NCBI GenBank assembly: GCA_965230955.1
Contig: OZ246404.1
Span: forward strand, 685,426 to 749,425
Reading direction: 5' to 3'
Length of the DNA: 64,000 nucleotides
Source of the DNA: an uncultured Candidatus Saccharibacteria bacterium
GTDB lineage: Bacteria > Patescibacteriota > CALEFQ01
Made by a program: the position numbers and the translations under genes. Positions 1,721 through 52,042 of the stretch are shown here, piece after piece (position 1 is the first letter of the stretch; each line of letters opens with the position of its first letter). Below the pieces are notes generated by a model. It worked only from the letters and a program-made list of their open reading frames with translations, made no database searches and had not been told where the DNA came from.

Positions 1721-2134
1721 TTAATTTTTACCTGTTGCCTGATCGATCGCTTCATTCACCAACTTATCCGCTTCTTTGTTTTTTTCGCGAGGAATATGAT
1801 GAAAAGCTATTGAATTGAATTTATTGGTCAGGGCCAACGATTTCGCGAACAAAGGCTTGAGATCCGCATTTTTCACCCGGTACTCTCCCCGCATTTGCTT
1901 CACGATCAATTCACTGTCCATAAAGACCTTCAAATCTTCAACTTGTTCCGTTCTTGCCAGTTCCAATCCAGCAATCAATGCCTGATATTCCGCCTGATTA
2001 TTCGTCGCGGTCCCAATAGTTTTTTTGACTTTTGACTTTTGACCTTTGACTTTCAAAACAACCCCGATCCCCGCCGGTCCGGGATTGCCCCGGGCTCCTC
2101 CATCGGTATATAGTTCCGCATTATTCTTTAACAT
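1721..2134 (-). CDS. rnhA: Ribonuclease HI
   Basis: YTDGGARGNPGPAGIGVV and the catalytic core are conserved. The protein carries an in-frame KVKGQKSKVKK insert encoded by a GTCAAAR heptad array. Confidence 0.85.
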   Translation of the reverse strand: MLKNNAELYTDGGARGNPGPAGIGVVLKVKGQKSKVKKTIGTATNNQAEYQALIAGLELARTEQVEDLKVFMDSELIVKQMRGEYRVKNADLKPLFAKSLALTNKFNSIAFHHIPREKNKEADKLVNEAIDQATGKN

Positions 2135-3842: not shown

Positions 3843-3982
3843 AAAAATCCCTAGACGGGGGTTTGTGGATTAGCTTCTAACATTGTAACGCAAAAATCCC
3901 AATAAAACAAGGCTATACTCCTCGCCAACAAAGCACTCTGAAAACAAAAAGACAACCTCAATCATGGTGTCTTTTTGATTGA

Positions 3983-4052
3983 AATTCAAAATGCATAATT
4001 CATAATGCAAAACTACTAATCCAGATTATGCATTTTGAATTTTGAATTATCA
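3983..4052. repeat. Inverted repeat ttcaaaatgcataat / attatgcattttgaa (family E, TGCATTTTGAATT)
   Basis: Perfect 15-bp arms with a 26-nt spacer. A related motif occurs at 22017-22050. Confidence 0.6.
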
Positions 4053-4053
4053 A

Positions 4054-5799: not shown

Positions 5800-5920
5800 G
5801 AGACGAAATTTAAAGCTAAAAATTTAAAAGAAATTTAAAGATTAAAAACGAAAACCGCGATTTTAATTTTCGGCTTTAAATTTATTTCAAACTTTGATTT
5901 TTTAATTTTAAATCTTGATA
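5800..5920. repeat. AT-rich tandem approx. 12-mer repeats (aaatttaaag-type) in the porA-porB spacer
   Basis: Sequence aaatttaaagctaaaaatttaaaagaaatttaaagattaaaaacg. Confidence 0.5.
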
Positions 5921-14444: not shown

Positions 14445-14506
14445 TTGTCTTTAGTCGTTAGTCTTTAGTCTTGGGCTAACGACCAAAGACTAAAGACCAA
14501 AGACTT
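14445..14506. repeat. Palindromic heptad-repeat element, family B
   Basis: Sequence gtctttagtcgttagtctttagtcttgggctaacgaccaaagactaaagaccaaagac. Confidence 0.7.
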
Positions 14507-14509
14507 TAA

Positions 14510-15697
14510 TTATCCCTTATCCAAAGCATCTATCGCCACCAAATGCCCGTCGGCCAGGAAATCCAGCATGGCTCCCCCGCCGGTAGACACAAAACTGAGC
14601 TTATCTTTTACTTTCATTTCATCCAGGAAATCGACAGTCTCACCGCCGCCGACAACGGTATGCGCCTTTGTCGCCGCCAGCGCTTCCACGATTCCCTTGG
14701 TCCCGGCCCGAAAATGCATATGTTCGAAATAACCCATCGGACCGTTCCACAAAACCAGCTGGGATTTAGCGATTATTTCTGAATACCGTTTGACAGTGCG
14801 TGGTCCAATATCATAAATAATGTCATCCGTCCCAATCTCTCTAACCGCGCAGGTTCTGGCATCACGCGGCTTCGCTTGCGGTTCGTCTTTTTCCAGTTCC
14901 CGGGAAACCGCCACATCGACCGGAATCAGTAATTTTGCATCGGTAATTTTCGGCACCAGCGTCACCGCCTCGCTCAAAGCCCGACCGCTCACTTTCGACG
15001 CGCCGACCGGCGCTCCGCTGGCCTTCAGTAACGTGTTCGCTATTTCGCCACCGATCAGAACATGATCGGCCTGCTGGACGAATATTTTCAGCAATTTCAG
15101 CTTGGTCTCCAATTTCGCGCCGCCCAGGATAAAAGTAAAAGGGTGCGGCGGATCCGTGCGCACCGCGCTCAATTCGCGGACTTCTTTGTCCAGCAACAAT
15201 CCGGCCGCTCCGGGCAGATATTTCAGAATTCCGGTCATGCTGGCATGCTCGCGATGACAATTGGCGAAAGCATCGTTGACATAAAATTCACCGTTTCGCG
15301 CCAGTTCTTTTGCGAAAGCGTCGTCATTTTTTTCTTCTTCCGGATGAAATCGAAGATTTTCCAGAAAATAAATATTGTTCTCTCGATTGCCGAGGGCCGA
15401 ACGCACGGGCTCTCCGATACAATCGTCAAGTTTGGTCACCGGCTGCCCGATTAATCGTTCCAACCGACGAGCGACTCCCGTGGTACGATACTTCTCCACC
15501 ACTTGCCCCTCCGGACGCCCGACATGTGTCATCAAAATCAAAGTACAGTTTTGCGAAAGCAAATATTTCAGGGTCGGGATTGTCGAGCGGATCCGATAAT
15601 CATCTTGGGGATTCCCTTGAGAATCCAGCGGTTCATTAAAATCCACGCGCACCAATATGCGCTTTCCTTTTAAATCGAAGTCCTTGATCGTTTTCAT
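14510..15697 (-). CDS. pgk: Phosphoglycerate kinase
   Basis: N-terminus KRILVRVDFN, with conserved PGK domains. Confidence 0.9.
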   Translation of the reverse strand: MKTIKDFDLKGKRILVRVDFNEPLDSQGNPQDDYRIRSTIPTLKYLLSQNCTLILMTHVGRPEGQVVEKYRTTGVARRLERLIGQPVTKLDDCIGEPVRSALGNRENNIYFLENLRFHPEEEKNDDAFAKELARNGEFYVNDAFANCHREHASMTGILKYLPGAAGLLLDKEVRELSAVRTDPPHPFTFILGGAKLETKLKLLKIFVQQADHVLIGGEIANTLLKASGAPVGASKVSGRALSEAVTLVPKITDAKLLIPVDVAVSRELEKDEPQAKPRDARTCAVREIGTDDIIYDIGPRTVKRYSEIIAKSQLVLWNGPMGYFEHMHFRAGTKGIVEALAATKAHTVVGGGETVDFLDEMKVKDKLSFVSTGGGAMLDFLADGHLVAIDALDKG

Positions 15698-15698
15698 T

Positions 15699-15732
15699 AT
15701 TGTTACTTGTTCCGTGTTACTTGTTACTTATC
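15699..15732. repeat. Heptad tandem array, family C (TGTTACT). It is a half-element that overlaps the gap 3' end.
   Basis: Sequence tgttacttgttccgtgttacttgttactta. It encodes the C-terminal ...ISNK of GAPDH. Confidence 0.55.
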
Positions 15733-16751
15733 TTTTCCGCCATCTCCACCAATCGGACCGAATAAGCCCATTCGTTATCATACCAGGCCACGACTTTAGC
15801 CAGATTTCCGCCAACCACTTTGGTAAAAGGCAGGTCGACGATTGACGATTCGGTCGATCCGATGATATCGGAAGAAACAATATCATCATCCGAAACGGCG
15901 AGGATGCCTTTCATTTTTCCCTGAGACGCCGCCGTCAGCTTGGCGTTAATTTCCTCTACGGTCGTATCTTTTTTCAGAACCATGGTGATGTCGGCAATCG
16001 AACCGCAGATGACCGGAACACGAATCGCCGTCCCGTCAAAAATTCCTTTCAATTCCGGAATCGCTTTCGTCGTCGCAATCGCCGCGCCGGTACTCGAAGG
16101 AGCGCTATTGGCCGCGCCGGCCCGTCCCCGACGATGGTCTTTTTTGTCCGGCCCATCAACCAATAATTGAGTCGCCGTGTAAGCGTGGGTCGTCACCATC
16201 ATTGATTTGGCCACGCCGAATTCATCGCACATAACCTTCATGACCGGAGCAATGCAGTTCGTCGTACACGAAGCGTTGTCGATGATTTTTTCGCCCCGGT
16301 ACTCTTCGTCATTTACTCCTCGGATATAAGTCGGCACCGGGTCTTTTTCATTGGAAGGCGCGGACAACAAAACTTTTTTAGCTCCGGCTTTTAGATGCAA
16401 ATCCATGTCGGCCGCTTTGGTAAAAACACCGGTGCATTCCAGAACCACATCAACCCCGAGTCTACCCCAAGGCAGTAGAGCGGGATCTTTTTCGCGGAGC
16501 ACTTTAATTTTTTTGCCGTCGATGACCAGATTATCCCCGTCCACTTTGACCGACTTGTCATATCGGCCATAAACCGTGTCGAAACGCATCAGATAAGCCA
16601 GGGCCTCTATATCCCCCAGATCATTAATAGCCACAATCTCCAGATTTTTTTTGGCGAAAATTATTTTGCAGGCGGCCCGGCCGATCCGGCCGAAGCCATT
16701 GATCGCGATCTTTAGCATAAAATTACAATTAAGCGATAAGTCAAAAGTCAA
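15717..16751 (-). CDS. gap: Glyceraldehyde-3-phosphate dehydrogenase
   Basis: N-terminus INGFGRIGR and catalytic SCTTNC. Confidence 0.92.
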   Translation of the reverse strand: MTFDLSLNCNFMLKIAINGFGRIGRAACKIIFAKKNLEIVAINDLGDIEALAYLMRFDTVYGRYDKSVKVDGDNLVIDGKKIKVLREKDPALLPWGRLGVDVVLECTGVFTKAADMDLHLKAGAKKVLLSAPSNEKDPVPTYIRGVNDEEYRGEKIIDNASCTTNCIAPVMKVMCDEFGVAKSMMVTTHAYTATQLLVDGPDKKDHRRGRAGAANSAPSSTGAAIATTKAIPELKGIFDGTAIRVPVICGSIADITMVLKKDTTVEEINAKLTAASQGKMKGILAVSDDDIVSSDIIGSTESSIVDLPFTKVVGGNLAKVVAWYDNEWAYSVRLVEMAEKISNK

Positions 16752-21877: not shown

Positions 21878-22016
21878 GGCTTTGAATTACGCAAAAACGG
21901 TCTTTTCCAGCGAGCCGGAAAAGCGATTTTTCCTTTAAAATTATAACATTTTAACTATAATTCTTCAATTTTCAAAAGGGGAAAACTATTCAATTAAAAA
22001 CATGAAATTGTAATCT

Positions 22017-22050
22017 TGATTTTGCATTTTGAATTATGAATTCTGAATTT
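22017..22050. repeat. Family E motif (tttgcattttgaattatgaatt)
   Basis: Similar to the element at 3983-4052. Confidence 0.5.
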
Positions 22051-22105
22051 CTTAAAAAAAATCTCCCCACCCGGTTACCCAGGCAGGGAGAAAAATTCAC
22101 ACGGT

Positions 22106-22897: not shown

Positions 22898-23014
22898 CGG
22901 CGGGATATTTTTTCTGCTATCCAAATTTTTATCATCTGCCCCTGTTATGCAGGGCATCCTTCCATTTCGCCTCGCTCAGGGTCAGGAGACTCAGTCAATT
23001 TACCTTTTGCATTA
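22898..23014. repeat. Left copy of a ~115-bp direct repeat flanking the 23130..23597 gene
   Basis: About 90% identical to 23680-23789. Sequence cggcgggatattttttctgctatccaaatttttatcatctgcc...cgctcagggtcaggagactcagtcaatttaccttttgcatt. Confidence 0.8.
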
Positions 23015-23129: not shown

Positions 23130-23597
23130 ATGAAATACAGTTTTGGTGTGTTGGCGCTGGTTCTACTGTCTGCCTTTAATTCCGTGCTCGCTGATGCCGT
23201 TGACTTTCCGCCCGGTAACAACAAAAAGATGCCCGAAGTAGGATTGGCCGCTGCCGAGGATTACGGAGATCGACAGTTTGCAGCGTGGTTACCTTACTTC
23301 CCAAGCGACAAGGATCACGGTACCTTCGAAGTAAGCACCCGCTACACTCTGTTCGTGCTAATCCCGGAGAGCTTTGGACCCGGCGCAACCGTCAAGGTTT
23401 CGGTCAGTCGTGAAGACGCAAAGGTTCCAATCGATGCTGAAGTTCTACTTTTATCAGAAAAGCTGACAACACATTTTCCCTTAGCGCCTGATGGCATCTT
23501 ACGTATTCCCGACAGTGGCGCCTCAATCATGTTACGCGCGCTACCGCCCCTGACCGTCAAATTCGAGAAAGTACCGAGCCTAACGGACGCGCAGTAG
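23130..23597 (+). CDS. Hypothetical secreted protein. The signal peptide is MKYSFGVLALVLLSAFNSVLA.
   Basis: ATG ORF with its own promoter and terminator. Flanked by direct repeats. Confidence 0.6.
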   Translation: MKYSFGVLALVLLSAFNSVLADAVDFPPGNNKKMPEVGLAAAEDYGDRQFAAWLPYFPSDKDHGTFEVSTRYTLFVLIPESFGPGATVKVSVSREDAKVPIDAEVLLLSEKLTTHFPLAPDGILRIPDSGASIMLRALPPLTVKFEKVPSLTDAQ

Positions 23598-23659: not shown

Positions 23660-23692
23660 AAAACCGCCTCTCGGCGGGATATTTTTTCTGCT
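23660..23692 (-). terminator. Intrinsic terminator downstream of secY
   Basis: On the minus strand ccgccgagaggcgg is followed by a T-run. Confidence 0.6.
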
Positions 23693-23789
23693 ATCCAAAT
23701 TTTTATCATCTGCCTCTGTTATCTAAGGGATCCTTACCCTTCGCTTCGCTCAGGGTCAGGAGACTCAGTCAATTTTACCTTTTGCATTT
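23680..23789. repeat. Right copy of the ~115-bp direct repeat
   Basis: See 22898-23014. Confidence 0.8.
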
Positions 23790-23798
23790 TACCTTTAT

Positions 23799-25082
23799 CT
23801 AGAACCCCTCGTAATCCCTCATCACCAACTGCGCGTCCAGCTGTTTCATCGTTTCAAGAATTACACTGACCACGATCAAGAGTGCGGTGCCGCCCAAAGT
23901 CAGGGTCTGCACGCCAGTGATAAATTGGATAGTGAGCGGTAAAACCGCAATGATTCCCAGGAAAATCGAACCGGTCAGAGTAATGCGATTAGTAATCTTT
24001 TTAAGATAATCGGCTGTATTTTTACCCGGCCGGATTCCCGGAATAAAGCCGCCGTTCTTCTGGATATTTTCGGAAATATATTTGGGATCGAAGGTGACGG
24101 AAGTATAGAAATAAGTAAACGCAATAACCAAAATGAAATAGAAAATCCCGTAAAAAAGCTGATTTTGGAATAAATCGGCCACTTTTTGGGCACCAGTCGC
24201 GACCCAGCCCCAATTAAGACCGGCGACAAACTGAGCGATAACGCCAGGGAAAAGCATAATGGAGATGGCGAAGATAATAGGCATAACTCCGGCTTGATTG
24301 ACCCGCAAAGGCAAATGCGCCGACGTGCCGCCGTACATTTTGCGTCCGCGCACCCGTTTGGCATAAGACACTGGTATATTTCGCTGGCCTTCCGTCAGCA
24401 AAACCACACCGGCGATGGTGACCACTGCGATGGCGCCAAAAGCGATAATACCGGTCAATTGGGTCGGATCAAAAACCGCTACCGTTTGCTGAAGTTCGGC
24501 CGGCAAACGAGCAATAATACCGGCAAAGATCAGCAGTGAAATTCCGTTGCCGACTCCCTTTTCTGAAATCATTTCTCCGATCCACATCAGGAAGATCGTA
24601 CCGCCGGTAACCGTCACGATAATCGTGACAAAATTCCAAAAACTCAAATTGGTAATCAGAGGCACCGGGCCGCGATTAAGTAAGCTAATCAAACTATAAG
24701 CCTGGAGAGCCGCCAGCGGCACAGTCAAATAACGGGTCCAGCGGTTGATCTTGCGGCGTCCTTCTTCCCCTTCTTCCTTGGCGATTTTTTCCAATTTTGG
24801 AATGACCATCGTCAAGAGCTGCAAGATGATGGACGCGGTGATGTAAGGACCGACGCCCAACATGACGATCGACAGGTTATCCAAACCGCCGCCGGAAAAA
24901 ATATTCAATAAACCGAAAAGCTGATTGTTCTGCATGAACGACCGTAAAGCATCGACATCGACGCCCGGCACCGGAATGGCCGCCGCCACACGAAAGACGA
25001 TCAACATCGCCAGGGTAAACAAAATTTTGTTCCGGATCGACGGAATTTTGAAAATCTGGACGATTTTTTGATACCAAGCCAT
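23799..25082 (-). CDS. secY: Preprotein translocase SecY
   Basis: Ten-TM SecY fold with conserved motifs. It follows rplO, as in the spc operon. Confidence 0.92.
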   Translation of the reverse strand: MAWYQKIVQIFKIPSIRNKILFTLAMLIVFRVAAAIPVPGVDVDALRSFMQNNQLFGLLNIFSGGGLDNLSIVMLGVGPYITASIILQLLTMVIPKLEKIAKEEGEEGRRKINRWTRYLTVPLAALQAYSLISLLNRGPVPLITNLSFWNFVTIIVTVTGGTIFLMWIGEMISEKGVGNGISLLIFAGIIARLPAELQQTVAVFDPTQLTGIIAFGAIAVVTIAGVVLLTEGQRNIPVSYAKRVRGRKMYGGTSAHLPLRVNQAGVMPIIFAISIMLFPGVIAQFVAGLNWGWVATGAQKVADLFQNQLFYGIFYFILVIAFTYFYTSVTFDPKYISENIQKNGGFIPGIRPGKNTADYLKKITNRITLTGSIFLGIIAVLPLTIQFITGVQTLTLGGTALLIVVSVILETMKQLDAQLVMRDYEGF

Positions 25083-25142
25083 GTTTTAGTCTTTGGTCGT
25101 TAGTCTTTGGTCTTTGGTCTTTTGTCGCTTGTCTTTGGTTTT
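25083..25142. repeat. Heptad tandem array, family B (TCTTTGG). It overlaps the 3' end of rplO.
   Basis: Sequence tagtctttggtcgttagtctttggtctttggtcttttgtcgcttgtctttgg. It encodes the L15 tail KPKTSDKRPKTKD. Confidence 0.6.
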
Positions 25143-25624
25143 TCAGACTGGGCGGTTGTTTTCGGCTGTCCGACTGTCTCTATCTTTCCGCCAGACTTGA
25201 GAATCGCCGCTTGCGCTGACTGGCTGAAAGAGATATTTCGAAAACGCATAGAATCAATTTTCCCGGCACCGATAATTTTGGCGCCGCCGCGAGAAGCTTT
25301 GATTAAACCGCGCTGGCATAATGATTTCGGAGTAACCAATTCCCCGTCTTTGAAATGCTTGGCCAAACGGCTCAAACTGACTTCCTCGGCATAAAAACGA
25401 GCGGTTCGCGCGCGAGGATTCTTGTAACCCATACCGCGCAATTTGGGAATTCTCTCGACCAACGACGTCTGTTCGCCTTCAAAACCCAGGCGTTGTCGAC
25501 CGCCGCTGCGCGATAGTTGTCCTTTTTGACCTCGGCCGGATTTGGCGCCTTTGCCACTACCAATACCGCGTCCCCGGCGAAGCTTCTTGTGCTGACGAAA
25601 AATTTTGATATCGTTTATTCTCAT
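25100..25624 (-). CDS. rplO: 50S ribosomal protein L15, with a repeat-encoded C-terminal extension
   Basis: GRGIGSGKGAKSGRGQKGQ motif. Confidence 0.9.
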   Translation of the reverse strand: MRINDIKIFRQHKKLRRGRGIGSGKGAKSGRGQKGQLSRSGGRQRLGFEGEQTSLVERIPKLRGMGYKNPRARTARFYAEEVSLSRLAKHFKDGELVTPKSLCQRGLIKASRGGAKIIGAGKIDSMRFRNISFSQSAQAAILKSGGKIETVGQPKTTAQSEKPKTSDKRPKTKD

Positions 25625-34764: not shown

Positions 34765-34926
34765 TCGAGTAATTACTCGATAAAGTTTTAATCAATAAAG
34801 TCTGCCAGCAAAGTAATTTTTCAACTTCCTGGTAGAAAAGGAAATGACGATTCATTTCCCTTCCTTATCAAGAAATTACCCGCGCACCGACCCCGAAGTA
34901 ATTTCGAGCCGGTGCAAGGTGAGTGC

Positions 34927-38522: not shown

Positions 38523-38615
38523 CTTAGTTAGTCTTTAGTCTTTAGTCTTTAGTCTTTAGTCTTTAGCCGCGTTTTTAGTCTACCGACTAAAGACTAACGA
38601 CCAAAGACCTAGGAA
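38523..38615. repeat. Palindromic heptad-repeat element, family B
   Basis: Five copies of tagtctt, then a loop, then gactaaagactaacgaccaaagacc. It lies between fusA and rpsG. Confidence 0.75.
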
Positions 38616-41202: not shown

Positions 41203-41376
41203 ATAGTCTTATGTTAGCGAGTCTGGAGGATATTTCAAGGAAAATTTAAAATCTAAAAATTAAATTCAAAAGAAATTCACAACATAAAATCTAAAATATT
41301 CAAGTCTTTTTAATTTTCATTTAAAATTTCTTTTTATTTTTTTATTTTAAGCTTTGGATTTCAACCCTATCTACTC

Positions 41377-41405
41377 TTGCCAATCTTCTCTTATTCATAT
41401 ATACT
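41377..41405 (+). promoter_or_regulatory. Sigma70-like promoter TTGCCA, 17 nt, TATACT upstream of rpmB, in an A-tract-rich region
   Basis: Sequence cTTGCCAatcttctcttattcataTATACT. Confidence 0.45.
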
Positions 41406-41444
41406 CTTCTTTGTCCCTATAACTTTCACTAAATATACAAATCT

Positions 41445-41630
41445 ATGTCTCGCGTTTGCTCTATCTGCGGCAAAGGCTCAAAAGTCGTCACTAAGACCGT
41501 ATTTTTGCGTTCGCATACCAATCCCACCGGCAAGAGACGCCAATACCCCAACCTGCAAAAAACGACTTATCAGGGCAAAAAGGTTCGAGCCTGCGTTAGC
41601 TGTATCAAAAAACAGAACAAGACTAAGTAA
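41445..41630 (+). CDS. rpmB: 50S ribosomal protein L28
   Basis: MSRVCSICGKG...RSHTNPTGKRR. Confidence 0.88.
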   Translation: MSRVCSICGKGSKVVTKTVFLRSHTNPTGKRRQYPNLQKTTYQGKKVRACVSCIKKQNKTK

Positions 41631-41682
41631 AAAGTCAAAAGTAGAATTACAAAATTTTTTACTTTTGACCTTCGACTTTTAA
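41629..41682. repeat. Palindromic heptad-repeat element, family A
   Basis: Sequence aaaagtcaaaagtagaattacaaaattttttacttttgaccttcgactttt. Confidence 0.65.
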
Positions 41683-41862
<180 letters not shown>

Positions 41863-41867
41863 TTCCA

Positions 41868-41912
41868 CGCCAATTAAAAAGGTGTGGCCTTTTGGCCACA
41901 CCTTTTTAATTG
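41868..41912 (+). terminator. Intrinsic terminator
   Basis: Sequence aaaaaggtgtggccttttggccacaccttttt. Confidence 0.75.
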
Positions 41913-46333: not shown

Positions 46334-46334
46334 A

Positions 46335-46394
46335 AAAGAAACCCTCAGGGAGGGTTTTTATAGTCTTTGGTCTTTAGTCTTTAGACTCTAGGCT
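46335..46394. repeat. Terminator hairpin (aaaccctcagggagggttt) plus a short family B element
   Basis: On the minus strand aaaaccctccctgagggtttctttt lies immediately upstream of the comEC ATG. Confidence 0.6.
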
Positions 46395-46652
46395 AGTTAT
46401 TTCTACAATTTTTTCTCGGCTTTTTAGCCCATGCACGATATGTACCGCTCGTTTCTTCACCTGGTACCAATCGGCCAGACTGGCAATTACCGCCTGGTTA
46501 GCCTTACCGTCAACCGCCGGTTCGGTAACGTAAACTTTTAAGGAATCAGGAGCCGACTGAGCTTCAATCCGAGCCTGCTTGGCTCGTGACACGACTTTTA
46601 TATTAATCCTGATCATCTGAAGAAATTTAGCATATTTACCACTGATTGGCAA
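46374..46652 (-). CDS. DUF167 / YggU-family protein (UPF0235)
   Basis: About 90 aa, with the YggU pattern. Confidence 0.6.
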   Translation of the reverse strand: MPISGKYAKFLQMIRINIKVVSRAKQARIEAQSAPDSLKVYVTEPAVDGKANQAVIASLADWYQVKKRAVHIVHGLKSREKIVEITSLESKD

Positions 46653-51871: not shown

Positions 51872-51941
51872 AAAATTACATCTTTATGGTGTAACTTTTC
51901 TCACACCAGCTCGAGAAAAAGTTCACTCATTTATTAATTAA

Positions 51942-51992
51942 GTTAAAAGTCAAAGGTCAAAAGTCGAAACTTTTTACTTTTGACTTTTTACT
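51942..51992. repeat. Palindromic heptad-repeat element, family A. It is followed by the GC hairpin gccccgaggtgtctcggggc.
   Basis: Sequence aagtcaaaggtcaaaagtcgaaactttttacttttgacttttt. Confidence 0.7.
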
Positions 51993-52042
51993 TAGTAATA
52001 AAAATGCCCCGAGGTGTCTCGGGGCGCAACTATTATAGTTGT

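Follow-up and report, generated by a model that had tools for sequence, protein, structure and literature searches.

Heptamer arrays in a Patescibacteria genome: gene ends and an RNase HI hairpin as probable edge cases of a leader-array population

The closest described counterpart of the repeats discussed here appears to be the system of TAACTGA heptamers found in marine Beggiatoaceae, some Cyanobacteria and Bacteroidetes (MacGregor 2015, PMC4679880). Those repeats are mostly intergenic, lie in forward orientation and end a few nucleotides (nt) before start codons, where few ribosome-binding sites are seen (PMC4679880). The forward units carry stops in all frames, and in BOGUAY 13-14 overlaps with the ends of upstream open reading frames (ORFs) were counted, with one indirect repeat among 170 sets (PMC4679880). 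In a few cases an array is internal to an ORF and encodes a peripheral part of the protein, strains differ in steps of 7 nt, and the repeats also occur upstream of fusA in 'Maribeggiatoa' and inside ribosomal protein operons (PMC4679880). Here, we describe tandem period-7 (heptad) arrays in a 64-kb stretch of DNA, referred to as the window, from an uncultured Candidatus Saccharibacteria bacterium (contig OZ246404.1, positions 685,426 to 749,425). Nearly all genes of the window are on the minus strand, and the genome belongs to the Patescibacteria, or Candidate Phyla Radiation (CPR). Three of the arrays run into the genes for ribosomal protein uL15 (L15), an RNase HI family protein and glyceraldehyde-3-phosphate dehydrogenase (GAPDH). 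We propose, with a probability of roughly 70%, that such arrays are edge cases of a genome-wide population of leader arrays that turns over by slippage, and that the encoded peptides are by-products.

The window arrays resemble the TAACTGA system in being mostly intergenic, start-adjacent and of one preferred orientation, in lying in Shine-Dalgarno-poor (SD-poor) DNA and in changing length by 7 nt, and they likewise stand before EF-G (fusA) and overlap the ends of upstream genes. They differ from it in that there are several units, none of them TAACTGA, and in that about half of the arrays are inverted pairs with long hairpins. Moreover, some of the units are open in the forward direction, which permits a forward array in the structured part of an enzyme, and the host is a Patescibacteria genome of only 1.1 Mb. 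A literature search returned no report of heptamer repeats in Patescibacteria.

Other repeat classes share part of these features. The short tandemly repeated repetitive (STRR) sequences were described in heterocystous cyanobacteria; heptanucleotides such as TTGGTCA and CAACAGT are reportedly dispersed intergenically there, with several families per genome, as Mazel and co-workers are said to have found in 1990. Some STRR units (TTTGGTC, TAACAGG) resemble those of the window, a likeness within a class that is not definable beyond 'tandem heptamers', and we know of no report of STRR sequences that encode conserved protein segments. The repetitive extragenic palindromic (REP) sequences and bacterial interspersed mosaic elements (BIME) of Enterobacteria are abundant intergenic hairpins between co-transcribed genes, coexist with terminators and may affect mRNA stability. 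The window hairpins are also intergenic and coexist with true terminators. However, REPs are not made of tandem short units, are linked to REP-associated tyrosine transposases (RAYTs) and do not abut start codons, and no RAYT transposase was seen in the window. Contingency loci have in common with the window arrays that short tandem units in or just upstream of genes change copy number by slippage; they concern surface and virulence genes and vary within populations, whereas the genes at issue here are housekeeping genes and the coding arrays are constant in length. Finally, PMC4679880 summarises the work of Mrazek and co-workers on the long simple sequence repeats (LSSR) of prokaryotes, among which heptanucleotides are the most abundant class (compare PMC4692102). 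LSSR and window arrays agree in the unit of 7, in slippage as the proposed generator and in the counter-selection of non-multiples of three in coding DNA; being a statistical class, LSSR predict no start-codon placement, inverted pairing or concerted evolution within genes.

Arrays were called with Tandem Repeats Finder (TRF) and with a period-7 scan and mask of our own. TRF listed some 40 period-7 arrays in the window, and neither this list nor our scan contained a TAACTGA array. Under a single scoring rule, arrays were present at period 7 (nine) and period 14 (eight) only: there were none in the window at periods 4-6, 8-13 and 15, and none in 20 second-order Markov simulations scored in the same way. 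Period 7 is far above chance. The mask covers 867 of the 6,907 non-coding bases (12.6%) versus 187 of the 57,093 coding bases (0.33%), and the unit families, read on the coding strand, are AAAGACY, AAAAGTC, AAGATAT, AATTCAA and AAGTAAC.

Most of the arrays end shortly (0-13 nt) before a start codon. They occupy the gaps between co-directional genes, and 18 of the 80 genes have one at most 40 nt upstream of the start codon, at a distance of 0-13 nt in 15 cases; the last codons of eight genes are reached by an array. The A-rich arm of AAAGACY arrays faces the start codon in every case in the window, and the tightly packed S10-spc ribosomal protein operon is array-free. SD-like motifs (GGAG, GAGG or AGGA at positions -20 to -4) precede seven of the 80 starts (8.7%) as compared to a background of 7.9%, and the window is thus without Shine-Dalgarno enrichment. 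Roughly every second array belongs to an inverted pair, and these pairs form long hairpins (z -5.3 to -8.0 against shuffles), whereas the three arrays in L15, RNase HI and GAPDH are single-armed and unstructured, with z about 0. All three were called by TRF within 1-3 nt of the positions given in an earlier note on this DNA, which had read them as products of slippage that lengthen proteins.

The most noteworthy of the three is the array in the RNase HI gene, for which the relevant features are:

2023..2053, minus strand: heptad array GTCAAAR (TRF period 7, 4.4 copies, 91%)
1721..2134, minus strand: RNase HI family protein of 137 amino acids (aa) (PF13456/PF00075)

This array lies wholly within the coding sequence, and its four GTCAAAR units encode residues 28-38, KVKGQKSKVKK (codons AAA GTC AAA GGT CAA AAG TCA AAA GTC AAA AAA). 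The in-frame reading given in the earlier note is hereby confirmed, while the term 'insert' is not. Between the GxPGxxG and TNN motifs the window protein has 21 residues. The corresponding stretch measures 18-27 aa (21-23 in 41 cases) in a set of 44 distant homologues, which came from a metagenome scan that was aimed at close RNase HI relatives and yielded only homologues of at most 61% identity. In the alignment the array segment lines up with a hairpin present in all homologues, where it is encoded by non-periodic DNA: the period-7 score is 20/21 in the window versus 5-11 in the 44. Because the segment is no longer than in these homologues, it is not an insertion. In the AlphaFold model of the protein (mean predicted local distance difference test, pLDDT, 95.1) strands span residues 19-29 and 32-43, and the array-encoded peptide is predicted to form the tip of the beta2-beta3 hairpin. 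The array has no partner arm in the window and no structure (z 0.38).

The window and six of its relatives, seven lineages in all that reach down to some 70% protein identity, have an array at the same RNase HI hairpin, and the units are specific to each lineage. The relatives are given here by our handles, with units and encoded peptides:

Window and L003: AAAGTCA x4 (that is, the GTCAAAA phase); KVKGQKSKVKK in the window, EAKSQKSKVKR in L003
L001: AAAATTC x2, ATAATGC, AAAATGC; KFKIHNAKCKIKK
L215: AAAATTC x3, AAAATGC; KFKIQNSKCKIRE
L217: AAAACGC / AAAACGT; KRKTQNVKRKIKK
L216: weaker signal, 16/21; KIKNAKLKIKKFKE
L002: AAAACGC x2, a GC-rich palindromic insertion of about 42 nt, AAAACGC x2; KLKTQNATAARGGGAPPKAVAKRKTKK

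The units are more similar to each other within an array than across orthologous arrays, and this indicates that the hairpin is under concerted evolution. In spite of this turnover of units the copy number is unchanged wherever it can be compared (the window, L003/L004 and the P0122 cluster all have four units), as is to be expected where a slip of 7 nt would shift the frame.

The in-frame insertion in L002 (L002:1860-1905, CACCGCCGCCAGAGGCGGCGGGGCCCCGCCAAAGGCGGTGG) lengthens the RNase HI hairpin by about 14 aa; similar inserts are present in P0127 and P0130. Together with a GC-rich palindromic insertion in the L15-SecY spacer of L007 (L007:5520-5603, size class about 42-52 nt), which splits a heptad array, it raises the possibility that a small mobile palindrome preferentially targets heptad arrays. 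Similar insertions have reportedly been seen in cyanobacterial heptamer arrays, a report that our literature search did not recover. The other end of the RNase HI gene is also touched by arrays in some relatives. In L217 (2405-2435) the C-terminus is 5-7 aa longer and ends in KFKMQNAKL before the stop, read from AAATTCA AAATGCA AAACGCA AAATTAT, and this is a true array-encoded C-terminal extension. In L001 (2353-2383) and L002 (2227-2252) the protein ends in ..VTGNK and ..VTDNK, respectively, encoded by GTAACAR units that run beyond the stop.

At the L15-SecY junction the features are:

25085..25143, minus strand: heptad array of the AAAGACN family (TRF period 7, 8.4 copies, 76% matches), alternatively called as a 14-mer at 25086-25139 (3.9 copies, 82%)
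25100..25624, minus strand: uL15, 174 aa (PF00828 on a 100%-identity match)
23799..25082, minus strand: SecY, with its start directly after the array (PF00344 on the gene that follows L15 in syntenic loci)

S5 and L15 are immediate neighbours in the window, where an intervening L30 is lacking. The array takes in the final 13-14 L15 codons, the tail reading ...EKPKTSDKRPKTKD and then stop (codons GAA AAA CCA AAG ACA AGC GAC AAA AGA CCA AAG ACC AAA GAC TAA), which agrees with the earlier note. However, the array does not end there: it extends past the L15 TAA stop (25100-25102), which falls at the first AAAGACT variant in frame, and over the 17-nt spacer to the SecY ATG at 25082. It is a single A-rich arm, and unstructured (minimum free energy, MFE, -4.6 kcal/mol; z -0.15).

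All members of the clade have a C-terminal L15 tail of some 22-25 aa, of which no more than the final 13-14 residues come from the array in the window. The L15 proteins of L005/L006 (75% identity) also count 174 aa, their stop codons are unshifted, and an array occupies the corresponding site; in L005 the units differ (ACCAACG x3) and the L15-SecY spacer measures 10 nt versus 17 nt in the window, 7 nt shorter. L007 (77% identity) has an equally long tail, ..AEKPAKSSVKAPKTKA, without a period-7 array at the threshold used. There, the spacer holds an AAAGACY array at a distance of 5 nt from the SecY ATG, and the GC-rich insertion separates it from the end of the coding sequence. In L009 (72%) and L010 (53%) Lys/Pro/Ala tails of equal length are encoded by heptad-free DNA. 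Since the tails of L007, L009 and L010 are equally long without coding heptads, the basic tail of L15 appears to predate the array, contrary to the claim that the extension was born from it. The array itself is best seen as a leader of SecY that would have overwritten the end of the tail in two lineages. L15 variants of at least 90% identity are all equal in length, with the substitutions concentrated in the tail.

The third case, at the junction of GAPDH and phosphoglycerate kinase (PGK), is a modest one:

15700..15729, minus strand: heptad array of the AAGTAAC family (TRF period 7, 4.3 copies, 82%; MFE 0, unstructured)
15717..16718, minus strand: GAPDH, 333 aa from the MLKIAING ATG, with a canonical C-terminus
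14510..15697, minus strand: phosphoglycerate kinase, starting 2 nt past the array (PF00162 by synteny in L005)

The array does overlap the last codons of GAPDH, as had been noted, but the overlap was overstated, for it comprises no more than the four final codons (ISNK) with the stop (15717-15729). The remaining 17 nt lie in the 19-nt GAPDH-PGK spacer, which ends at the PGK start (15697). GAPDH aligns with solved structures to its last residue (for 1gd1, query residues 2-333 with residues 2-332 of 334 in the chain). In L005, the protein ends similarly in ..ERIGNK from non-repetitive DNA, in a gap that holds no array. On this comparison GAPDH has no C-terminal extension.

A comparison of orthologous gaps showed how the non-coding arrays change between the window and L005:

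PGK-enolase gap: 70 nt in the window, 49 nt in L005 (3 units fewer, 21 nt)
L15-SecY gap: 17 nt in the window, 10 nt in L005 (1 unit fewer)
L23-L2 gap: no array in the window, a hairpin array in L005
GT2-GalT gap: array in the window, none in L005
FBA-GAPDH gap: array in the window, none in L005

In addition, the PGK-enolase gap of L010 holds an array of a different family, ATCTTAY. Arrays in orthologous gaps have been gained, lost and resized by multiples of 7 nt, so that a slippage-type turnover of the non-coding arrays is well supported. No change in the length of a coding part was found, either within clusters of at least 90% identity or in relatives at 75-88% identity. The contigs with exactly matching proteins (SRR10083293, SRR10083294 and SRR10083310) are three independent assemblies, 100% identical to the window and from the same population.

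The extent to which an array can enter a gene is related to the reading frames of its unit. AAAGACC, AAAGACA, AAAAGTC and AATTCAA have no stop in any forward frame. AAAGACT and AAGTAAC, which carry TAA and close all three frames within 21 nt, and AAGATAT have stops in all forward frames. Because some units are open in the forward frames, L15 can read 13-14 codons into its array and RNase HI can hold an internal one. Among the AAAGACN arrays, intergenic units have T in 12 cases versus C in four, and the coding units counted were all of the C type (n=2). Two further gene ends are array-encoded, and two hairpins illustrate the paired arrangement:

46363..46391, minus strand: AAAGACY array overlapping the last six codons (LESKD and stop) of the DUF167/YggU gene 46374..46652
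41656..41685, minus strand: AAAAGTC-type array encoding the C-terminus ..KLKVEGQK, followed by the stop, of an 80-aa ORF (41659..41901)
14447..14505, minus strand: intergenic PGK-enolase hairpin, made of the inverted arrays GTCTTTR and then YAAAGAC (MFE -32.8 kcal/mol, z -8.0)
38528..38608, minus strand: inverted-array hairpin between S7 and EF-G (TRF; z -6.7)

The array at 41656..41685 is the 5' arm of a hairpin with its partner arm at 41625-41643. The downstream arm of the S7-EF-G hairpin (38528-38566) has 5.6 perfect copies of CTAAAGA (TTAGTCT on the forward strand); it is the most perfect array of the window and adjoins the EF-G start codon from upstream.

Taken together, these observations would fit the following course of events. 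The arrays inhabit short leaders between co-directional genes of a genome without Shine-Dalgarno enrichment, where replication slippage or unequal exchange may make and homogenise the units; this is inferred from the 7- and 21-nt differences between relatives and from the similarity of units within arrays. They could come to encode protein by two routes. By the first, the stop of the upstream gene falls inside a leader array, so that the final codons become array-encoded, as would be the case for L15, GAPDH, the DUF167 gene and the 80-aa ORF. Units that carry TAA close the frames, and the overlap with upstream ORFs would thus be limited to stop-free variants. In L15 the basic tail would have come first and the array would have overwritten its end later. 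By the second route, an open A-rich array (AAAANNC) would have taken over the DNA of the exposed hairpin tip of RNase HI, leaving the net length unchanged, and would then have evolved in concert within each lineage. Coding arrays would be frozen in length, a 7-nt slip being a frameshift, and the peptides they encode, one in a disordered tail and one in a surface hairpin, may be by-products that are tolerated.

The arrays probably serve above all as leader elements for the downstream start codon: single arrays could be A-rich, unstructured ribosome landing sites, and paired arrays could form hairpins with a 5' arm that starts at the upstream stop and that may act in translational coupling or in processing. 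A terminator role of the heptad hairpins was rejected, since they are AT-rich and no T-run follows, and separate sites with a GC-hairpin and a T-run adjoin them; canonical terminators stand beside arrays in the gaps 46334-46373, 51872-52042, 21878-22105 and 3843-4053, among others. An asymmetry in G-U pairing (sense versus antisense, with its C-A mismatches) was considered as a sign of a role in the sense RNA and was rejected, the MFE sums being nearly equal. With the gathering thresholds of Rfam, only RNase P RNA was recognised in the window, and the arrays match no curated RNA family.

Several points weigh against the proposed reading. The analysis covers 64 kb of a 1.14-Mb genome. The RNase HI array does not stand upstream of any start, so that the leader idea fails to account for its persistence across the clade. 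The 14 hairpins have no structure specific to the sense RNA (summed MFE -322 kcal/mol sense versus -330 kcal/mol antisense), so that they give no pointer to an RNA-level role on the coding strand, and the functional part of the proposal is weak. The terminators beside the arrays speak against a terminator role but are no proof of a role in translation. Stop-free units counted in coding DNA are very few (n=2), and the comparison of strains is uninformative as the three assemblies are identical.

A stronger version of the leader idea holds that the arrays constitute an SD-independent system for translation initiation or coupling with a dedicated RNA-binding factor. It could then extend over Patescibacteria, Bacteroidota, some Acidobacteriota and Cyanobacteria, and the RNase HI array would be a functional site with a unit that co-evolves with the leader arrays of the genome. 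We regard this version as unlikely.

According to the earlier note, the repeats appear to have expanded by slippage within genes and to be tolerated, or used, as Lys/Pro/Thr-rich inserts and tails, from which some of the basic extensions typical of CPR ribosomal proteins may stem. Part of this stands. Heptad arrays do reach into coding sequence, and their reading there gives Lys-rich peptide, given that the end of the L15 tail, the RNase HI hairpin and the end of GAPDH are all array-read; intergenic arrays do differ between relatives by 7 and 21 nt; and the RNase HI end of L217 shows that array-born tails do arise occasionally. However, no such expansion was seen in the coding parts, which are fixed in length. 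No length variants of coding arrays were found, proteins being equal in length within the clusters of at least 90% identity. The 44 distant homologues have an RNase HI segment of similar length, GAPDH is not extended, and L15 tails are just as long in the three relatives without period-7 tail DNA. Equivalent segments from non-repetitive DNA are what the note itself had named as refuting its reading, and by that standard an array origin is refuted for L15, RNase HI and GAPDH. Moreover, the heptad signal in gene tails is confined to L15 among the 80 genes (18/21, other tails scoring 4-14), and 11 other tails with at least seven Lys/Arg residues, among them those of S5, L4, L2 and S12, have scores of 6-10, which is background. 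The arrays are therefore not a general source of basic ribosomal protein tails. Ala/Lys-rich extensions in CPR, for instance that of S19, are on record, as is a tendency towards a shorter L15 in some of these bacteria (bioRxiv 10.1101/2022.01.07.475337). An origin of the extensions in slippage is, in our view, improbable.

Comparable doubt applies to the idea that selection maintains the array in RNase HI, and perhaps other coding arrays, as a cis-element, such as a programmed pause or regulatory site or a binding site for the factor that would also recognise the leader arrays. Selection of this kind would explain why an array is kept at one spot across the clade while its unit changes: the units turn over in the seven lineages with the AAAANNC form conserved, and the unit families concerned (AAAAGTC, AAAATTC/AAAATGC) recur in intergenic arrays of the window. 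Nevertheless, the A4 core merely encodes Lys that distant homologues share at the hairpin (..KKYIG), an array that is unable to slip without a frameshift would persist passively, and this one is without partner arm or structure. We know of no factor for the RNase HI array, which also counts against a selected site.

Very improbable is a function of the coding arrays as contingency loci for phase variation, in which a slip of one unit would turn RNase HI off or alter the L15 tail and its overlap with SecY. Simple repeats within genes, or between promoter and start, are classic phase-variation devices, as stated in the introduction of PMC4679880. The 7-nt unit is indeed not a multiple of three, and intergenic arrays of the same families vary in copy number between relatives. 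The genes concerned are, however, housekeeping genes; four RNase HI units are kept in the window, L003/L004 and the P0122 cluster; length and stop position of L15 are conserved between the window and L005; and no frameshifted alleles were seen in the three identical assemblies. Finally, chance or codon usage in Lys-rich peptides, in which AAA codons dominate the units, is effectively refuted as the origin of the coding periodicity by the period scan, in which other periods are at background in the same segments and the Markov controls are array-free, and by scores of 18-20/21 versus 5-11 in the 44 homologous segments and 4-14 in other gene tails.

The AAAGACY unit is not restricted to this genome. 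Among the matches listed, three consecutive AAAGACY units occur in Pyrinomonadaceae and other Acidobacteriota, Bacteroidota, Nostocaceae, Vibrio, Methylococcales, Omnitrophota and Patescibacteria, and the true distribution is wider than these matches. Within the same set (L011-L130) they are common in Pyrinomonadaceae/Blastocatellia, Vicinamibacterales and Bacteroidota, and some are very long, reaching about 29 units among the matches listed. In these listed matches an ORF start lies at most 60 nt from the array in 62 of 130 cases in the forward direction versus 32 of 130 in the reverse.

Some other features of the window may be mentioned. The non-coding stretch 41203-41658 (456 nt) has AT-rich short repeats (TRF periods 7, 8 and 12 at 41241-41348) and also holds the heptad hairpin with, as its 5' arm, the end of the 80-aa ORF, which has no Pfam match. 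Positions 22911-23013 and 23685-23788 are copies of about 104 nt, about 90% identical and in the same orientation. They flank the sole plus-strand ORF of that region (23130-23597, 155 aa), between the MAP gene and SecY, and the whole looks like an insertion bounded by direct repeats. Logan short-read contigs of the same population break at 5839 and 23685, in the one case at a 25-nt tandem repeat (5805-5854), in the other at the repeat of 104 nt; assemblies of this clade are probably fragmented by such arrays and repeats. The gaps between S10 and L3 (34206-34401, 196 nt) and between EF-Tu and S10 (34765-34926, 162 nt) are unusually long, with blocks conserved in L005. They are candidates for structured leaders, or for regulatory RNAs, in the S10 operon. 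Bacterial RNase P RNA of class A is encoded in full length at 331-747 on the minus strand (Rfam, 201 bits), and ARAGORN found no tRNA genes in the 64 kb.

For L15, our reading means that the basic tail was not built by repeat slippage: the tail is the older of the two, and its end was overwritten by a leader array. More generally, start-adjacent heptamer repeats extend to the Patescibacteria, where they come with hairpins and several unit families. If the arrays are in fact translation signals that work without SD pairing, this would be of real interest; the evidence supports the layout only. The most noteworthy part is the concerted evolution of the RNase HI hairpin. Here, an out-of-frame 7-nt array would encode the tip of a well-ordered hairpin, with a peptide that is rewritten in each lineage at a fixed length, and it may thus serve as a natural example of a protein structure that tolerates the dynamics of a DNA repeat.

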